From Escherichia phage BP32, in sequence record OR906198.1: a DNA stretch of 64,000 nt, one strand, 5' to 3'. Positions within the stretch are counted from its first letter, which is position 1, and each line of letters starts with the position of its first letter. The notes below the pieces were generated by a model. The model was not told the origin of the DNA, ran no database searches, and saw nothing but the letters and a program-made list of their open reading frames with translations. Made by a program: the position numbers and the translations under genes. Below are positions 21,046 to 64,000 of the stretch, one piece after another.

Positions 21046-22611
21046 TTAGATACCTTTAACATATACACGGCGGAAGTAAGCGTTTTTACCAAGGCTATTC
21101 AGAATAGAAGGCATACCGCTTTGAATGCGAGAAGCCGGAGCCTGAGCAGCGGATTCTGCAAATGGGTTGATACCGATACCGTAACGAGTTTTGAATCCCA
21201 TTACTGGTTGGAAGTTCTTCGGATCGGAACCACGCAGCGGAGTCAGAGCTACATATGGAGCATAGTAAATACCAGCATCCATTTCGTTCGGACCTTTATA
21301 ACCTACAGTGAAATAATCCTGTTTAGCATACTGGTCGATATATACACGGTATTTACCACCCAGAACACCAGCAAATACTGACTTGGTAGTATCAGTGTTA
21401 AAGCCGGTAGCCAGACCCTGTGCAGCATAAGAAATGCCAGTATCAACTGAAGCCAGAACGTTAACTACGTTACGGGAAGCGATAATGAAGTTACCTTCAC
21501 CACGACCGGTCTGACGAGCAATTTCAACTGCTTCTTTGTCAATCTGGAACAACAGAGCTTTAAAGGATTCACCCGCCCAGCGAGCACCACGAATATCAAT
21601 CGGATCCTGGAAGTCAAATACACCAGCTTTAGAACCCGGAGTCAGGGTCATACCAGATTTACCAACCTGAGCTGAGTAGTTAATCCAATCAACAACTTCA
21701 CGGTTGATTTCCAGCATGATTTCGGTAGCCAGAATACCAGACAGTTCAGCATCAGCATCCATACCGTGAACAGCGCGGAGGTCTTGTGCTAATTCAATAG
21801 AGTAAGCAGCTTTCAGCTGACGAGATTTAGCTTCGATAACTTGTTTATCGATACGGAAGCCCATTTCATTCCATGGGTTATCGGTAGAACCATTGAAACC
21901 TTCCTGAAGTTCAGCGATAGAAGTAGCCATACCTTCAGCGATTTCTACCAGTACACCAGCTTCCATTTGTTTCTTAATTTCAGCATCTAATTTAGCTGCA
22001 TCAGTTGCGCTTGCATCGATTGTTACTACAGCAGAAGCCTGCAGATACACAGTACCAGTTTCCTGGAAGAAGTGAGTATAGATATCACCTACAACGGTTT
22101 GTGTGCTAGCAGCCAGAGCTGGGAATTTCTTAGCAGCACCCTGACCAGAGAACATTGCATCTGGACCATACATTGGGTGGAATGCTTCTTTAGCGCCGGC
22201 AGCGATTGGGTCTTTACCATATACTGCGCGCAGTGCGAATACCTGACCGGTTGGGCTGTTCATCGGCTGAACACCGCAAATATCGAAAGCAATCAGGTTA
22301 GGAATAGCACGACGTACCATACCCATAACAGCTGGGCCAATCTGAGTTACTGCGCCAGAAGTCTGACCAGCAGCGATGTTAGTAGCGTTGTAACCGTGGT
22401 CACCACCGATTTCAGCTTCTGTTAAGAAAGAACCGAATGCCTGAGCAATTTTTTCGTCTTTGTACTCTGGAGCTGTCTGGAAATCTTTTTCCTGGTTTTC
22501 AAAGATTTTAGCGATAATCGCTTGTTTGCTATTAGCAATTTCCGGTAAACCTTCACCTTCCAGTAATGGCTTCCATTTGTTCAAAAGTTCAGCTTTAGTT
22601 TTGATAGTCAT
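21046..22611 (-). CDS. 23: major capsid protein gp23
   Basis: 521 aa, same as T4 gp23; T4-like codon usage; synteny 22-23-24. Confidence 0.95.
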   Translation of the reverse strand: MTIKTKAELLNKWKPLLEGEGLPEIANSKQAIIAKIFENQEKDFQTAPEYKDEKIAQAFGSFLTEAEIGGDHGYNATNIAAGQTSGAVTQIGPAVMGMVRRAIPNLIAFDICGVQPMNSPTGQVFALRAVYGKDPIAAGAKEAFHPMYGPDAMFSGQGAAKKFPALAASTQTVVGDIYTHFFQETGTVYLQASAVVTIDASATDAAKLDAEIKKQMEAGVLVEIAEGMATSIAELQEGFNGSTDNPWNEMGFRIDKQVIEAKSRQLKAAYSIELAQDLRAVHGMDADAELSGILATEIMLEINREVVDWINYSAQVGKSGMTLTPGSKAGVFDFQDPIDIRGARWAGESFKALLFQIDKEAVEIARQTGRGEGNFIIASRNVVNVLASVDTGISYAAQGLATGFNTDTTKSVFAGVLGGKYRVYIDQYAKQDYFTVGYKGPNEMDAGIYYAPYVALTPLRGSDPKNFQPVMGFKTRYGIGINPFAESAAQAPASRIQSGMPSILNSLGKNAYFRRVYVKGI

Positions 22612-35433: not shown

Positions 35434-36984
35434 TTAGTAATGAATTTTAATAATATAGTTTAATGATATATTCCATGGTCTAGTTTCATAACCAATTAAT
35501 CCTTCACGATTAAGTGTACCAAGGGCATCTCTCGGTCCACCCAATTCAAATCCATCATTAGTGAAGTATGAAGCATTATCCCAGTCGGAATATTTTCTAG
35601 TTCCAAGATATCCTTGATAAACGGACGCGCCAAATGGAGCTTCATGTCTTTGGTATTCTCCCCAACCACCAGCGTGTTTATGGTATGACATTTGTTGTGC
35701 CTGAACACCACCAACATGCATTCCGTCACATCCTACGCCAAGTCTATCCTTCCCATAACCATCTTGTCCACGTTGATTTAAAATATGACCGCCCGTGCCA
35801 GCTCCTCTAACAAAAAGACCTCTCATATCAGGAATCCCTGGATTATTCCAATCACCACCAAATCTTGCTCCAACCGTGTTTCTATAATCAGGATATTGAT
35901 CTCCTGACACGGTTCCGCCGTGGCACATAACCCAACCCGGAGGTGCTGAATCACCTGCAAACATCATAATAGTTCCAACTGGAACTCTTTCGGACGCATA
36001 TCTTTCAGTGGCAACAGGTTGATCGCCATTTTTCCACATTCCGCCGCGCGACCAAATTCCGTTTGCTGTAAGATGGTCTAAATTTAAAGAACCATTAATA
36101 GTTTGTCCACCACGAGTATTAATTACATCTGCGTTCCATGCTAATGCACCAGAGCTATCACCTTCAGGGGCAATACCGGCTTGCGTCGTTAATTTAACTA
36201 CTCCGCGCATAGAACCAGTAGCTCCTCGACCATTTAGTGTTTCACCTGTTACTGCAACATCTCCCAAATTACTGTTAATTTCTGATTGTGTTCCTAAACG
36301 TATAACACCCTTATATTCTTGTGTTGCAACAGAATTCATAAAGGTATACGGAGAAATTGCATATCCTTCGCGGAGAGTTCCTTGACGAGTTTGCGCAACA
36401 GTAGATAATTGAACTACACCTCTCACAGATTCTGATGCAGTATCTTCGGAAGGAGCTATTTGTGAAATTAATTTTATTGCAAGTTTTTGTGTTTTTAATG
36501 GAGTCATTGCCGTAGTATCATCAACTCCAGCTAAAGCTGCAGGTGTAGATGATATTTTAATAACCCCGTTTGATGACTCAGACGAATATCTATTTTGGAA
36601 CACATCGTCAGTGTGGTATTTCAGTTTTTGCGGCGTTATTGATGAATTATTATCTGAACCTTCTAATGTTTCTTCATTTGTTGAATAACGCGTTAAACCA
36701 TATTTAGTTTCAGTAGCATTTGGATACAATAATCTTGTTGCTAATGTAGCTGGTGTAACGATTTTGGAATTATTAGTTCCATCTAAAACCTCTTGCTCTG
36801 ACGCAATCATTGCTATTCCTTTAACTTCCATAGTTGCATCAGGAATACCATTTACGCCGATATTACTTATTTTTGATAATGCAGACTGCACTGTCGTGAC
36901 AGTGTCAGGAAAATTCGATCCTGCAGGATCGAATTTAACATATTTTGATTCATTTGATACGTGCTGATATGTATTGTTACTCAT
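35434..36984 (-). CDS. 12: short tail fibre protein gp12
   Basis: 516 aa; position between wac and gene 11. Confidence 0.85.
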
Positions 36985-55015: not shown

Positions 55016-55102
55016 GCGAGAATGGTCAAATTGGTAAAGGCACAGCACTTAAAATGCTGCGGAATGATTTCCTTGTGGGTTCGAGTCCCACTTCTCGCAC
55101 CA
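55016..55102 (+). tRNA. tRNA-Leu (anticodon TAA), type II, CCA encoded
   Basis: Acceptor GCGAGAA/TTCTCGC; anticodon stem CAGCA/TGCTG, loop CTTAAAA; long variable arm; T-loop TTCGAGT. Confidence 0.85.
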
Positions 55103-55107
55103 AATTT

Positions 55108-55181
<74 letters not shown>

Positions 55182-55191
55182 ATTTAATTTA

Positions 55192-55265
55192 CTCCGTGTA
55201 GCTCAGTTTGGTAGAGCGCCTGATTTGGGATCAGGAGGTCCAAGGTTCAAATCCTTGTATGGAGA
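55192..55265 (+). tRNA. tRNA-Pro (anticodon TGG), no encoded CCA
   Basis: Acceptor CTCCGTG/TATGGAG; anticodon loop TTTGGGA; T-loop TTCAAAT; only 2 nt before tRNA-Ser. Confidence 0.8.
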
Positions 55266-55267
55266 CT

Positions 55268-55352
55268 GGAGGCGTGGCAGAGTGGTTTAATGCACCGGTC
55301 TTGAAAACCGGCAGTCGCTCCGGCGACTCATAGGTTCAAATCCTATCGCCTC
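55268..55352 (+). tRNA. tRNA-Ser (anticodon TGA), type II, no encoded CCA
   Basis: Acceptor GGAGGCG/CGCCTCC; anticodon stem CCGGT/ACCGG, loop CTTGAAA; long variable arm. Confidence 0.85.
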
Positions 55353-55359
55353 CGTAATT

Positions 55360-55437
55360 TCGCTGATTTAGCTCAGTAGGTAGAGCAACTCACTTGTAAT
55401 GAGAAGGTCGGCGGTTCGATTCCGTCAATCAGCACCA
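55360..55437 (+). tRNA. tRNA-Thr (anticodon TGT), CCA encoded
   Basis: Acceptor GCTGATT/AATCAGC; anticodon loop CTTGTAA; T-loop TTCGATT. Confidence 0.8.
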
Positions 55438-55438
55438 A

Positions 55439-55515
55439 GGCCCTGTAGCTCAATGGTTAGCAGCAGTCCCCTCATAAGGGAAAGGTTACCAGTTCAAATC
55501 TGGTCTGGGTCACCA
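55439..55515 (+). tRNA. tRNA with CAT anticodon (Ile-lysidine type or Met), CCA encoded
   Basis: Acceptor GGCCCTG/CTGGGTC with one mismatch; anticodon loop CTCATAA; T-loop TTCAAAT; the T4 tRNA at this position is annotated Ile. Confidence 0.7.
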
Positions 55516-55524
55516 AATTAATTA

Positions 55525-55611
55525 GGGGAGTTATCCCGTAGAGGTAGCGGTGTGGACTGTAAATCCATTGTCATTGCGACTCGGGTGGTTCGACTCCACC
55601 ACTCCCCACCA
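55525..55611 (+). tRNA. tRNA-Tyr (anticodon GTA), type II, CCA encoded
   Basis: Acceptor GGGGAGT/ACTCCCC; anticodon stem GTGGA/TCCAT, loop CTGTAAA; long variable arm; T-arm GGTGG-TTCGACT-CCACC. Confidence 0.7.
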
Positions 55612-55657
55612 ATTTATGACTCGTCGTGAGACGCTCAGTTCTTTATTAGGGACTGAT

Positions 55658-56326: not shown

Positions 56327-56402
56327 CGGGGCATAGCTCAGAAGGAAGAGCAAGGACCTTCTAAGTCCTAGGTCGTAGGTTCGATCCCTACTGCCTCGAC
56401 CA
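56327..56402 (+). tRNA. tRNA-Arg (anticodon TCT), CCA encoded
   Basis: Acceptor CGGGGCA/TGCCTCG; anticodon stem AGGAC/GTCCT, loop CTTCTAA; T-loop TTCGATC. Confidence 0.85.
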
Positions 56403-56769: not shown

Positions 56770-57079
56770 GAAGCCGGGTCGCTACCGGTAAGTCGTCGGA
56801 CTGATGTTCCCTGGGTAAGGACTGGCATTAACAAATCTTTACGATCTGTTAATGTCCCCTTACATCACAGCAGAAACGGCGCACCGAATTATCGATTCGA
56901 GGAAATATCTTTGCCGTAAGCCGAGTAGCGTTTTTGACGGAACGTTCGGATATGGTCGAGATATGGCCTTTTAAAATATTGAGTAGCGTCAACTGCTTAA
57001 TAACCGGGTTCGAATCCCGGCGTTTCGTACAAACACTTGCCTTAGCAGGTGGAACCCCGACAAGGTTGCCGCAAGGCTT
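56770..57079 (+). ncRNA. candidate stable small RNA(s), possibly the T4 species 1/2 (rnaC/rnaD) equivalents
   Basis: About 310 nt, GC-richer than surroundings, no convincing ORF; tRNA-like T-arm CCGGG-TTCGAAT-CCCGG; internal repeat GAGTAGCGT; ends at a strong terminator; lies just after tRNA-Arg as in T4. Confidence 0.35.
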
Positions 57080-57107
57080 AGCCCCAGCCGAAAGGTTGGG
57101 GCTTTTT
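57080..57107 (+). terminator. rho-independent terminator agccccagcc-gaaa-ggttggggct followed by TTTTT
   Basis: 10-bp stem, GNRA loop, T-tract read directly. Confidence 0.65.
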
Positions 57108-57240
57108 GATATCTAGGCCTTTCTGGACCTCTCTAGGCATCATTTAGTTTATACCCTTTATAATATATTATCCTATCCTTTAATTGCCCATCCCTGCCCT
57201 AGAATTCCCTAAAACTTTTTAAAAATTTTTTCACAAAACT

Positions 57241-61070: not shown

Positions 61071-61601
<531 letters not shown>

Positions 61602-61605
61602 AGTG

Positions 61606-61635
61606 GTTTACTTTCTCCTAGAATTGTGATAGTAT
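61606..61635 (+). promoter_or_regulatory. T4-type early promoter (GTTTAC-N18-TAGTAT with TG)
   Basis: Read directly upstream of denV. Confidence 0.5.
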
Positions 61636-61660
61636 ATTCACAGTTACTTGGAGGGATAAA

Positions 61661-62077
61661 ATGACTCGTATTAATTTGACTTTAGTATCTGAACTTGCTG
61701 ATCAACATTTAATCGCAGAATACCGTGAATTGCCACGCGTTTTTGGTATAGTTCGTAAACACGTGGCAAATGGTAAGCGGGTTAAAGATTTTAAAATATC
61801 TTCCGAGTTTATTTTAGGTTCTGGTCATGTTACGTTCTTTTACGACAAGTTAGAATTTTTGCGAAAGCGTCAATCAGACATTATAATGGAATGCTTAAAA
61901 CGTGGGTTTAGTATAAAAGATACTGAAGTTCCTGACATCAGCGATATTCCAGCAGAATGGAAAAATGATTATAATCCATGCAAATCAGCTATTAAATTGA
62001 GTCAACAACGACTCGATAAAAAAATTTTAATGAAGCCACACTGGTACAAGTATTACGGCAAAAATATTTACATTTAA
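61661..62077 (+). CDS. denV: endonuclease V (pyrimidine dimer DNA glycosylase)
   Basis: 138 aa; N-terminus [17 protein letters not shown]...[10 protein letters not shown] matches T4 endonuclease V as recalled. Confidence 0.93.
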
Positions 62078-62086
62078 AGGAAACAT

Positions 62087-62560
62087 ATGAAAACATATCA
62101 AGAATTTATCACTGAAGCAGCTATTAATTCTCAAATTATTGCTGAATCTTTTACTGATCTTTTGAAATTTAAAAAAGGTCAAAAAATCACTGCTGTATTG
62201 GATGATGGTACAGAAGTTGAGATGGATGTACAGGGATATAATTATGCAGTAGATGGAAAACTGTATAATAAATCCCATGCTAAATTTGATTCATTTGACG
62301 ACTTTGTTAATACAGTTGAAGATGAAAAAACTCGTAGATCAATTTCAACTGGTGATGCTAAGGTTCTTATGGCACACGGTCATGAACGTATTCGCGCTAA
62401 ACAGAATAAAATGGGTGAAGATAATTTCGCATTAGTTGGTTATCAATCTGGTAAACAAACTTATGGCTATCAGCGTACTGCTACCATGTATAATAAAAAT
62501 GGTAAAATCGCTTTCGTGAATAGTAAAGGTTCTATTCAGTACGTCAAATCATTCAAATAA
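62087..62560 (+). CDS. internal protein (ipII/ipIII-type) with capsid targeting sequence
   Basis: N-terminus MKTYQEFITEA matches the T4 capsid targeting sequence consensus MKTYQEFIAE; 157 aa, basic. Confidence 0.65.
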   Translation: MKTYQEFITEAAINSQIIAESFTDLLKFKKGQKITAVLDDGTEVEMDVQGYNYAVDGKLYNKSHAKFDSFDDFVNTVEDEKTRRSISTGDAKVLMAHGHERIRAKQNKMGEDNFALVGYQSGKQTYGYQRTATMYNKNGKIAFVNSKGSIQYVKSFK

Positions 62561-62713
62561 GCAAATAAGAAATATGGGAACAAGCTGGACCTCATGATTC
62601 TATGAGGGATTCCCGCCAACCTGTAATAAGGTCGAGCCCAAGTGCGGTAATGGGTAAATACAGAAATGGACAATTCACGCGCCATGGAATGGCCCAAATT
62701 TAGAGAGAATAAA

Positions 62714-63256
62714 ATGAGAACATTTTTAACTGGTCCTTATCTATCCCTGATGAATGCTTTTACACACCATTCTGATGCTAGAGTAGAAGAAATTTGTAAT
62801 AGTGGATTTTATGTACCTGATTCGCCACATTTATTTAAAGAATACTGCACACTTCGACTAGATGGTGGACGTCAATCCGGTAAATCAACTGCAGTAACTA
62901 ATTTTGCCGCTAATTGGTTGTATGACGGTGGAACAGTTATTGTTCTTTCTAATACTTCAGCTTACGCTAAAATTTCTGCGGGCCACATTAAAAAAGAATT
63001 TTCACGCTATTCTAATGATGATATTCGATTCCGTTTATTTACTGATTCTGTCCGTAGTTTTGTTGGTAATAGAGGTAGCAAGTTCAGAGGTTTATCGCTT
63101 TCGCGGATTTTGTATATAATCGATGAGCCTGTTAAATCTCCTGATATGGATAAAATTTACGATATTCATATTGAAACTGTGCACCACTGTTGCAATAGTA
63201 AATGCTGCATTGGTGGTATTACTCGTCCACAGTTTTTCATAATCGGAATGCAATGA
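62714..63256 (+). CDS. small P-loop NTPase of unknown function
   Basis: Walker A GGRQSGKST and Walker B ILYIIDEP; start placed at the ATG with RBS AGAGAGAA (the track starts earlier at 62666). Confidence 0.5.
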   Translation: MRTFLTGPYLSLMNAFTHHSDARVEEICNSGFYVPDSPHLFKEYCTLRLDGGRQSGKSTAVTNFAANWLYDGGTVIVLSNTSAYAKISAGHIKKEFSRYSNDDIRFRLFTDSVRSFVGNRGSKFRGLSLSRILYIIDEPVKSPDMDKIYDIHIETVHHCCNSKCCIGGITRPQFFIIGMQ

Positions 63257-63582
63257 TGACAGACACGCAACTTTTCGAATATCTTTATTTTTCGCCAAAA
63301 ACTATTAAAAATAAATTGGTGAATCATTTTGAAATTTTGGCAAATAACAACGTCTTGAGCGAATTTTATCCTAAGCAATACAAATTACAAAAAGGCGTAT
63401 TCAAAGGATGCAGAGTTTTGTGCACTGCTCCTAATGCAAGATTAATGAATAAAATTCCATATTTTACCATGGAATTTATTGATGGACCTTTTAAAGGACT
63501 AATCACCCAAAGTTTAATGGCATATGATTCTGAGCCATTTTTAATTAAAGAGCAATCTTGGATAAATTTATTTTCTAATTGA
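63253..63582 (+). CDS. hypothetical protein (about 109 aa)
   Basis: ORF starting at the ATGATG overlapping the previous stop; the track gives an earlier start at 63202. Confidence 0.4.
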
Positions 63583-63953
63583 GAGGTTATATGAAAGCAT
63601 ATCAAATTCTTGAAGGCACGCATAAAGGTACTATTTATTTTGAAGACGGTATTCAAGCACGAATTATTGTCTCTAAAACTTTTAAAGAGGACTCTTTTGT
63701 AGACCCAGAAATTTTCTATGGTTTGCATGCCCGTGAAATTGAAATTGAAACACAGCCTACAGTTAAAATTGAGGGTGGTCAACACCTGAACGTAAACGTT
63801 CTGCGTCGTGAAACTCTGGAAGATGCAGTTAAGCATCCGGAAAAATATCCGCAGCTGACCATCCGTGTATCCGGTTATGCAGTTCGCTTTAACTCTCTGA
63901 CTCCGGAACAGCAGCGCGACGTTATCGCTCGTACCTTTACTGAGAGTCTATAA
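63579..63953 (+). CDS. autonomous glycyl radical cofactor (GrcA/YfiD-like; T4 Y06I-type)
   Basis: C-terminal 60 aa [56 protein letters not shown] carry the glycyl-radical motif RVSGYAVRF and match E. coli GrcA as recalled. Confidence 0.85.
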
Positions 63954-64000
63954 TGGCAAAGATAATTATTGAAGGTTCTAAAGATGTGCTAAATGCTTTC
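63953..64000 (+). CDS. start of a further ORF ([16 protein letters not shown]...), truncated by window end
   Basis: ATG overlapping the previous stop (TAATGG); only 16 codons visible. Confidence 0.3.
   Translation, partial: MAKIIIEGSKDVLNAF

Follow-up and report, generated by a model that had tools for sequence, protein, structure and literature searches.

T-even phages have very active recombination and readily copy homologous DNA that is present in the cell; in T4 marker rescue, or insertion/substitution recombination, short homologous, cytosine-containing DNA in the cell is copied into the phage genome. For the psbA and psbD genes of cyanophages, intragenic recombination between host and phage was reportedly described by Zeidner and colleagues in 2005. 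In T4-like cyanophages these two genes show patchy G+C content and intragenic host-phage recombination (Sullivan et al., 2006, PMC1484495). In T4 itself, the protein Y06I, product of the vs.6 gene, is reported to rescue oxygen-cleaved pyruvate formate-lyase (PFL) (Wagner et al., 2001, as quoted in PMC8683613). Here, we describe the vs.6 gene of Escherichia phage BP32 (sequence record OR906198.1), which lies close to the end of a stretch of 64,000 nucleotides (nt) that was analysed as a whole and is called the window below. Over 170 nt, the 3' half of this gene is identical to the grcA gene of Escherichia coli, and the explanation that we favour, with a probability of roughly 0.8, is recurrent host-to-phage gene conversion, which would have been confined to the part of the two genes whose similarity still permits recombination. 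Both the gene and its biochemistry are already known, and the point added here is an evolutionary one.

Match between the 3' half of vs.6 and E. coli grcA

The gene is divided as follows (positions in the window; GC, G+C content; GC3, G+C content at third codon positions):

63591..63953, + strand: vs.6 (Y06I) gene, phage autonomous glycyl-radical cofactor, 120 amino acids (aa) and then TAA
63591..63770, + strand: 5' half, residues 1-60, phage-type DNA, GC 0.33 and GC3 0.20
63774..63943, + strand: tract of 170 nt, 100% identical to E. coli grcA, host-derived patch, residues 62-118 of the glycyl-radical domain
63944..63953, + strand: phage-type 3' end, consisting of the third base of GAG and then AGT CTA TAA

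An earlier note on this DNA had described a GrcA-like gene with a GC-rich 3' half of E. coli-like codon usage and a phage-like 5' half, and the base composition bears this description out. The 3' half (63771-63953) has a GC of 0.49 and a GC3 of 0.43, against a GC3 of 0.20 in the 5' half; 0.49 and 0.43 are also the values of the corresponding stretch of E. coli grcA, and along the gene the profile is a step and not uniform. Among 183-nt windows taken across the 64 kb, the 3' half stands at the 99th percentile for GC, and its codon choice is a 0.13% outlier in comparison with the window's own long open reading frames (ORFs).

Residues 61-120 (EGGQH... to the end, including the RVSGYAVRF motif) are 100% identical to E. 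coli GrcA, as had been stated in the note. Most Enterobacterales and some Pasteurellaceae have this very C-terminal peptide of 60 residues, and protein identity is therefore uninformative on the age of the resemblance. At the DNA level, blastn matched positions 63769-63953 to grcA at 96.8-97.8% in all 5,426 complete E. coli genomes, and matched the 5' half in none of the same 5,426. Over the 170 nt from 63774 to 63943 there are 0 differences from the grcA allele of E. coli FDAARGOS_497, 1 difference from Escherichia sp. MOD1 and at least 14 from any other genus; hosts encoding the same peptide show 14 (Citrobacter) to more than 30 differences from the window in these 170 nt. When the 60 residues were encoded by simulation in the codon usage of the window, an identity of 76.2 +/- 2.3% was obtained, with a maximum of 86% in 20,000 trials, against the 97.8% observed, so that the nucleotide identity exceeds what protein conservation predicts; phage homologues whose peptide is the same, or almost so, reach just 74-85% identity to host genes.

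The transition is sharp. In a protein-guided alignment of the phage gene with E. coli grcA, the maximum chi-square breakpoint falls after position 63768, with 49% identity to its left and 98% to its right (value 106.8, reached by 0 of 2000 permutations). The synonymous divergence (dS) of the 3' half is 0.023 between phage and E. coli, compared with 0.42 between E. coli and Citrobacter and 1.03 between E. coli and Salmonella, and these values, together with the 170 nt lacking any difference, support the recent host derivation that the note had put forward for the 3' half. When the 64-kb window was compared with E. coli by megablast, the patch in vs.6 was the sole protein-coding match. In a neighbour-joining tree, a clade with 96% bootstrap unites Escherichia with 13 sequences from Tequatrovirus and Mosigvirus and with nothing else, and E. 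coli grcA branches where expected among the Enterobacterales sequences; the host gene is present in 5,426 of 5,426 E. coli genomes, in a conserved ung-grcA-eamB context. Comparison of the DNA thus shows a 3' tract of host origin, with Escherichia as the donor, the transfer running from host to phage and being recent. The donor gene is grcA itself. The glycyl-radical genes pflB and tdcE were considered as donors and rejected, their E. coli copies being only about 75-84% identical.

An internal patch in an old phage gene

The note had gone further and read the gene as a chimera, formed by the capture of a host glycyl-radical domain. This part of its interpretation is not supported: the whole gene is an old homologue of grcA, the tract is internal to it and the last three codons are of phage type. 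The 5' half is a diverged homologue of the N-terminal region of GrcA and is conserved among T-even genera, and vs.6 has been kept in all of the T4-like genomes compared by Nolan et al. (PMC1524935). By tblastn, vs.6 was found in 1,588 phage records, which include T-even genera on many hosts, Aeromonas phages, T5-like phages and jumbo phages. All 18 phage homologues that were translated contain the glycyl-radical domain, and several phage homologues use phage-like codons throughout. Relatives such as Karamvirus PG7 (GC3 of the 3' half 0.29, best host match 80%) and the Yersinia jumbo phage Yen9-04 (0.11) look unconverted, with 70-80% identity to the closest host gene, and unconverted relatives share with E. 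coli grcA exact runs of 11-20 nt.

At the other end of the tract, BP32 departs from the GAA AGC CTG of E. coli at 63944, 63947 and 63950, so that of the four differences that the 3' half has, three lie in the last 10 nt (P = 6e-4). The same ending, GAG AGT CTA TAA, is found in Mosigvirus, in Slopekvirus Matisse and in Pseudotevenvirus leB, and the annotation of phage Matisse makes this GAG the ribosome-binding site of vs.5, the gene that follows. From these alignments, vs.6 is to be regarded as an old, full-length phage homologue of grcA, and the DNA of host origin is shown to be an internal patch within a gene that already had a glycyl-radical domain. A patch inside a pre-existing domain argues therefore for gene conversion by homologous recombination and not for an illegitimate fusion.

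Signs of repeated conversion

The aligned samples comprise 13 phage sequences and 5 Escherichia alleles (four from E. coli and that of Escherichia sp. MOD1). Among the latter, the patch varies at positions 24 (A/T), 39 (T/C) and 102 (C/A/T) of the 3' half, and the phage alleles show the host alternatives at all three sites: BP32 has A24 and most of its relatives T24, C39 occurs in Mosigvirus tp6 and in a Tequatrovirus contig of IMG/VR (L104), and A102 in a further IMG/VR contig (L107). A rough hypergeometric calculation gives this overlap of shared polymorphisms a P of ~5e-4 over all sites and of 0.01 when restricted to third codon positions. The common (T24) E. coli allele is matched at 99% identity or more by at least 300 phage records and, among the matches listed, 30 of 30 are 100% identical to it, including T4T, RB51, RB59, RB68 and wV7; the patch of BP32 is an exact match to the minority A24 allele of E. 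coli. Where the patch ends on its 3' side, four sites combine into eight haplotypes among the 13 phages and E. coli, and all four gametes are present at positions 177 and 180 of the 3' half; this variability of the 3'-end haplotypes indicates that the tracts end at different points. When Tequatrovirus is compared with Mosigvirus, the 5' halves show a dS of 0.30-0.48 and the 3' halves one of 0.05-0.15. It seems, on the evidence of these alleles, that several independent host-to-phage events have taken place.

A parallel case is offered by phages of Klebsiella. In the vs.6 of Klebsiella phage KP179 (Jiaodavirus), GC3 steps from 0.20 to 0.54, and the first 173 nt of the 3' half are 91% identical to grcA of K. 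pneumoniae, the latter taken from a chromosomal sequence filed as a plasmid in PLSDB, and 85% identical to grcA of E. coli. A sequence that is apparently that of its relative KPV15 (IMG/VR contig L129) has, over about 158 nt of the same region, one mismatch to K. pneumoniae grcA, then returns to a phage-type 3' end, and pairs with K. pneumoniae in the tree. A total of 106 phage records are 95-99% identical to K. pneumoniae grcA and, among the matches listed, nearly all are from Klebsiella phages. The phages also track amino-acid variants specific to the host, LEDAVKH in E. coli and LLDAVEH in Klebsiella. These observations strongly suggest that the same conversion process would act in Klebsiella T-even phages.

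Some irregularities were noted in the records used for this comparison. The PLSDB entry CP125156.1 is chromosomal sequence of K. pneumoniae (5.37 Mb) and LR134122.1 is chromosomal sequence of K. aerogenes; in the latter record, an extra A in a run of A produces a frameshift in grcA. In L129, at about position 330-345 of the locus, a one-base deletion in a run of T, relative to KP179, breaks the frame of the 5' half of vs.6, and reflects either a sequencing error or a pseudogene. Outside Klebsiella, the Krischvirus phages SFHK24, PHB13 and ELT4 differ in vs.6 from phage JSE over a stretch of 25 residues and are placed on a long branch inside the host clade; this variant may be an older patch, derived from a host or from a phage. 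In a 19-kb IMG/VR contig (L132), the 3' half is closest to grcA of Yersinia (15 differences per 170 nt, the next host having 22), and this may be a patch of Yersinia type, or else the contig, although classed as viral, may hold a host fragment there.

Proposed mechanism and alternative explanations

The course of events that would account for these data is the following. The phage lineage would long have carried a full-length homologue of grcA, and the near invariance of the glycyl-radical domain at the protein level would have kept the phage and host genes similar enough there to recombine; the exact runs of 11-20 nt in unconverted relatives suggest that the constrained domain stays similar enough for conversion to begin. 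In the infected cell, grcA DNA of the host would be copied into vs.6 by homologous recombination, that is by gene conversion, probably through phage UvsX-type recombination with host DNA fragments. On its 5' side the patch would be bounded by the collapse of similarity at codon 60/61, to 49% upstream, and on its 3' side by the lack of similarity past the stop codon and by the need for phage bases in the ribosome-binding site of vs.5 and in its overlapping start. Since a converted gene is near-perfectly homologous to the host gene, later conversions would be easier, and through their repetition the 3' half would evolve in concert with the host gene. We favour the view that conversion is selectively neutral in the phages of E. 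coli, because the peptide is nearly invariant. A stronger statement, to which we give somewhat better than an even chance, is that the 3' half of vs.6 is held in step by an ongoing, one-way, homology-driven inflow of host alleles into T-even phages that are strictly virulent, in such a way that it records the recent host species and even the host allele.

Several points weigh against recurrent conversion or narrow its reach. T4 degrades host DNA, which should limit the supply of donor, and the aligned samples behind the shared polymorphisms are small (13 phage and 5 host sequences). Shared changes at third codon positions could recur by chance, with a P of ~0.01 to 0.0005, and the low divergence of the 3' half between genera could be explained by one converted allele spreading among co-infecting phages. 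No phage was found with more than 90% identity to grcA of Salmonella, as a Salmonella-type patch would have, and several phage genera that infect Enterobacter, Cronobacter or Citrobacter look unconverted; the process is therefore not universal. In Tequatroviruses with names taken from Salmonella, Yersinia, Serratia or Citrobacter, the patch is of the E. coli type. Finally, the NCBIfam model TIGR04365 ('spare_glycyl', the GrcA equivalog) aligns with residues 20-120 at 154.6 bits, below its cut-off of 170, because the N-terminal half has diverged, and the product of vs.6 is thus a homologue and functional analogue of GrcA and no strict equivalog by the NCBIfam criterion.

Among the alternatives, the one with most to recommend it, although we hold it to be unlikely, supposes a single capture or conversion in the common ancestor of Tequatrovirus and Mosigvirus, followed by descent and by recombination between phages, with the Klebsiella patch as one separate event. 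The 5' boundary at codon 60/61 is shared by all of the E. coli T-even phages sampled, most of them have the T24 allele, and phage-phage recombination, which is known to be frequent in T-even phages, could homogenise the patch. A single event does not sit well, however, with the exact match of BP32 to the minority A24 allele over 170 nt when most of its relatives match the common T24 allele exactly, nor with the host variants C39 and A102 that are also present among the phage alleles; the 3' endpoints vary, with a violation of the four-gamete rule, and dS between the genera is 3-6 times lower in the 3' half than in the 5' half. Recurrent conversion, in which these alleles would have entered separately, remains for us the better explanation.

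The other three alternatives are all far less probable than a single event. That E. coli obtained the 3' half of its grcA from a T-even phage is very improbable: identity by itself gives no direction, but the GC3 of the tract (0.43) is that of the 5' half of E. coli grcA and not the 0.20 of the phage, the E. coli gene is placed normally among the Enterobacterales and occupies the ung-grcA-eamB locus in all 5,426 genomes, and infection by a virulent phage is known to kill the cell. Still less credible, by a small step, is that nothing was transferred and that the identity reflects extreme constraint on the glycyl-radical domain, at the protein, codon or RNA level. The identity of the 60 C-terminal residues in most Enterobacterales and some Pasteurellaceae would fit such constraint; yet host genes that specify this very peptide depart from the E. 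coli sequence at 14-35 of 183 sites, phages encoding it (e.g., leB) differ at 28 sites, simulation predicts 76% identity, and synonymous divergence between hosts is saturated. Equally hard to credit is an artefact in which host reads, given that host DNA occurs in phage lysates, contaminated the phage assemblies and produced a chimeric consensus, as the mosaic is seen in about 640 independent phage records, including the T4 reference AF158101 and the RB-series phages, always with the same in-frame 5' junction and with a phage-type 3' end, and its Klebsiella version is carried by Klebsiella phages.

Gene identity, boundaries and other features of the window

The gene is the Tequatrovirus ortholog of T4 vs.6/Y06I, as sequence and gene order agree. 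Its protein is 98.3% identical to T4 Vs.6, with two amino-acid differences; the comparison with Y06I suggested earlier confirms the family and reveals the same mosaic in T4. The family phrog_1209 matches the full protein (residues 1-120, E=5e-63), and Pfam Gly_radical matches residues 60-101 (E=2e-18; 67 bits, with a cut-off of 22). Among known structures, GrcA (PDB 6OWR) matches over residues 22-120 (E=4.6e-42) and PFL (1H16) with residues 58-120 on PFL 697-759 (E=4.8e-26). By phmmer, residues 22-120 align with GrcA 28-127, the stretch 22-60 corresponding to GrcA 28-67. The protein is small and stand-alone and consists essentially of the C-terminal glycyl-radical domain, as expected of spare-part proteins like GrcA/YfiD, which are of about 14 kDa, with the RVSGYAVRF motif and its conserved glycine at residue 95, which we take to be equivalent to Gly102 of GrcA and Gly734 of PflB (numbering from established knowledge and PMC8683613).

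The ORF of 63579-63953, from a program-made list, to which the note had assigned the gene, is confirmed, with the exception of its start: it opens with TTG at 63579, and the ATG at 63591 is likely the true start, because it is preceded by GAGG and gives a length of 363 nt, equal to that annotated for T4 vs.6, which begins at the equivalent ATG. These elements and the neighbouring genes are:

63583..63586, + strand: Shine-Dalgarno-like GAGG before ATG 63591, read from the sequence
63873..63875, + strand: GGT codon of Gly95 in RVSGYAV, predicted radical site, from the sequence and its alignment to GrcA and PFL chains
63256..63582, + strand: vs.7 homologue directly 5' of vs.6 (ORF; phrog_2049; T4 annotation)
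63953..64000, + strand: start of vs.5, truncated by the window end (sequence; T4 and LYE-01 annotation)
55016-55611 and 56327-56402: phage tRNA cluster, with Leu, Gly, Pro, Ser, Thr, a CAU-anticodon tRNA and Tyr, and Arg further on

The order vs.8-vs.7-vs.6-vs.5 forms a tightly packed block, as in T4: the stop codon of vs.7 (TGA) is at 63580-63582, and the ATG of vs.5 (63953-63955) overlaps the stop of vs.6 (TAATG). The region of the vs.5 start has no similarity to the DNA downstream of E. coli grcA. A promoter and terminator scan of 62000-64000 gave no signal above chance. Over its last 800 bases the window agrees with Escherichia phage LYE-01 at 99.9% and with T4 at 96% identity; together with the gene order, this assigns it to a Tequatrovirus.

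Upstream, the window has at 61107-62560 the genes for e (lysozyme) and denV and for a 157-aa DUF7412 protein (PF24183, E=1e-95), followed by vs.8, where T4 has the order e, ipIII, ipII, denV, vs.8; the internal-protein region is rearranged or replaced with respect to T4 and differs also from the otherwise near-identical LYE-01. At 62570-62720, past the DUF7412 gene and ahead of the start listed for vs.8, there is a short GC-rich stretch (0.44-0.49). The ORF of vs.8 is listed with 196 aa, against 219 aa in T4, and the true start of vs.8 may lie upstream of the listed one.

The only other megablast match of the window to E. coli is the tRNA-Tyr region (about 55522-55612), at about 90%, and no host-like DNA was found in the 64 kb beyond it. 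The Rfam scan returned tRNAs only. ARAGORN called a 94-nt 'tRNA-Lys (ttt)' at 56937-57030, in a GC-rich island (56773-57163), at which the Rfam tRNA model is silent at its gathering score; the call may be false, or the RNA may be a small one of another kind. Two more GC-rich islands, at 21060-22447 and 35622-36085, correspond to the genes for the major capsid protein (Gp23 family) and the short tail fibre (gp12 family). The islands in gp23, gp12 and the tRNA genes have no match in E. coli, and the composition of those in gp23 and gp12 must therefore have another cause.

Function and significance

The function given in the note, that T4 Y06I is reported to stand in for YfiD in the repair of PFL, is found in the literature (Wagner et al., 2001, as quoted in PMC8683613). 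For the T4 protein the same work, as quoted there, shows that the host PFL activase installs the radical on it, and that it binds oxygen-cleaved PFL, stands in for the C-terminal piece that the host enzyme has lost and restores activity. By analogy with the 98%-identical Y06I, the product of vs.6 in BP32 would be a radical-accepting spare part for cleaved PFL, and would keep fermentative energy metabolism going in infected cells under micro-oxic conditions or oxygen intrusion.

Virulent phages such as T4, which destroy host DNA, are generally regarded as having next to no DNA in common with E. coli. Should the patch be renewed time and again, it would provide, in the best-studied pair of phage and host, a natural example of host alleles entering virulent phages through short homology, a simple assay for such transfer and a small host-of-origin marker for T-even phages; as the process would occur in T4 with E. 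coli, the rate and the genetic requirements of conversion from host to virulent phage could be measured directly. Were the inflow of host alleles indeed ongoing, the 3' segment of vs.6 would be in effect part of the gene pool of the host, and the E. coli-type patch of Tequatrovirus and Mosigvirus and the K. pneumoniae-type patch of Jiaodavirus KP179 and of KPV15 would mark the recent host.

There is also a practical side, in that the 3' half of a phage "grcA" is indistinguishable from host DNA in read mapping, in screening for host contamination and in primer design. The gene, under the name grcA, has been proposed as a marker for Straboviridae by polymerase chain reaction (PCR) and quantitative PCR (2026 paper, PMC12845203), with the reverse primer at the 3' end of the gene, beside the host-identical tract, and the forward primer in the phage-specific 5' half. 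The worry that these primers might amplify host DNA was considered and set aside: with its forward primer in the phage-specific half, the pair should stay phage-specific.

Comparison with known systems

The closest system is T4 Vs.6/Y06I, with which the BP32 gene shares 98.3% protein identity, the gene order vs.8-vs.7-vs.6-vs.5 and the mosaic structure. In the 170-nt core, the T4 reference departs from E. coli at 2 sites, and E. coli is matched without exception by T4T and by several more T4 records. BP32 is distinguished from T4 by the minority A24 allele and by its 3' end, GAG AGT CTA instead of GAA AGT TTG.

With E. coli GrcA (YfiD; 6OWR), vs.6 has in common a small stand-alone product, identical residues 61-120, identical DNA over 170 nt and an N-terminal region that is recognisably homologous from residue 22. 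The two differ in that the 60 N-terminal residues of the phage protein are only about 20-25% identical to those of GrcA and 7 residues shorter, in the phage codons of the 5' half, and in their genomic setting, since vs.6 is expressed from a phage gene block and grcA from the host ung-grcA-eamB locus.

As regards the process, T4 marker rescue is a laboratory procedure with plasmid-borne phage DNA, whereas the donor for vs.6 would be a chromosomal host gene in nature. The psbA and psbD genes of cyanophages, in which the nearest analogue of the mosaic has been described, are similar in being host-like metabolic genes in T4-like phages with statistical signs of segment exchange, and vs.6 displays the marks of a mosaic gene, namely an abrupt in-frame change of composition, a supported breakpoint and a donor closer than protein conservation explains. 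Unlike the psbA mosaics, which are older and more diffuse and involve exchange both ways, the patch in vs.6 is 100% identical to the gene of a named host species, has definite limits, and occurs both in T4, the model phage, and in its cultured relatives, with transfer apparently from host to phage only. We found no published description of the mosaic of vs.6 at the DNA level, with an earlier mention possible in the T4 genome review or in Wagner et al. (2001). The gene is thus a known one, and its mosaic is a new and unusually clean example of a known evolutionary process, gene conversion between host and phage.

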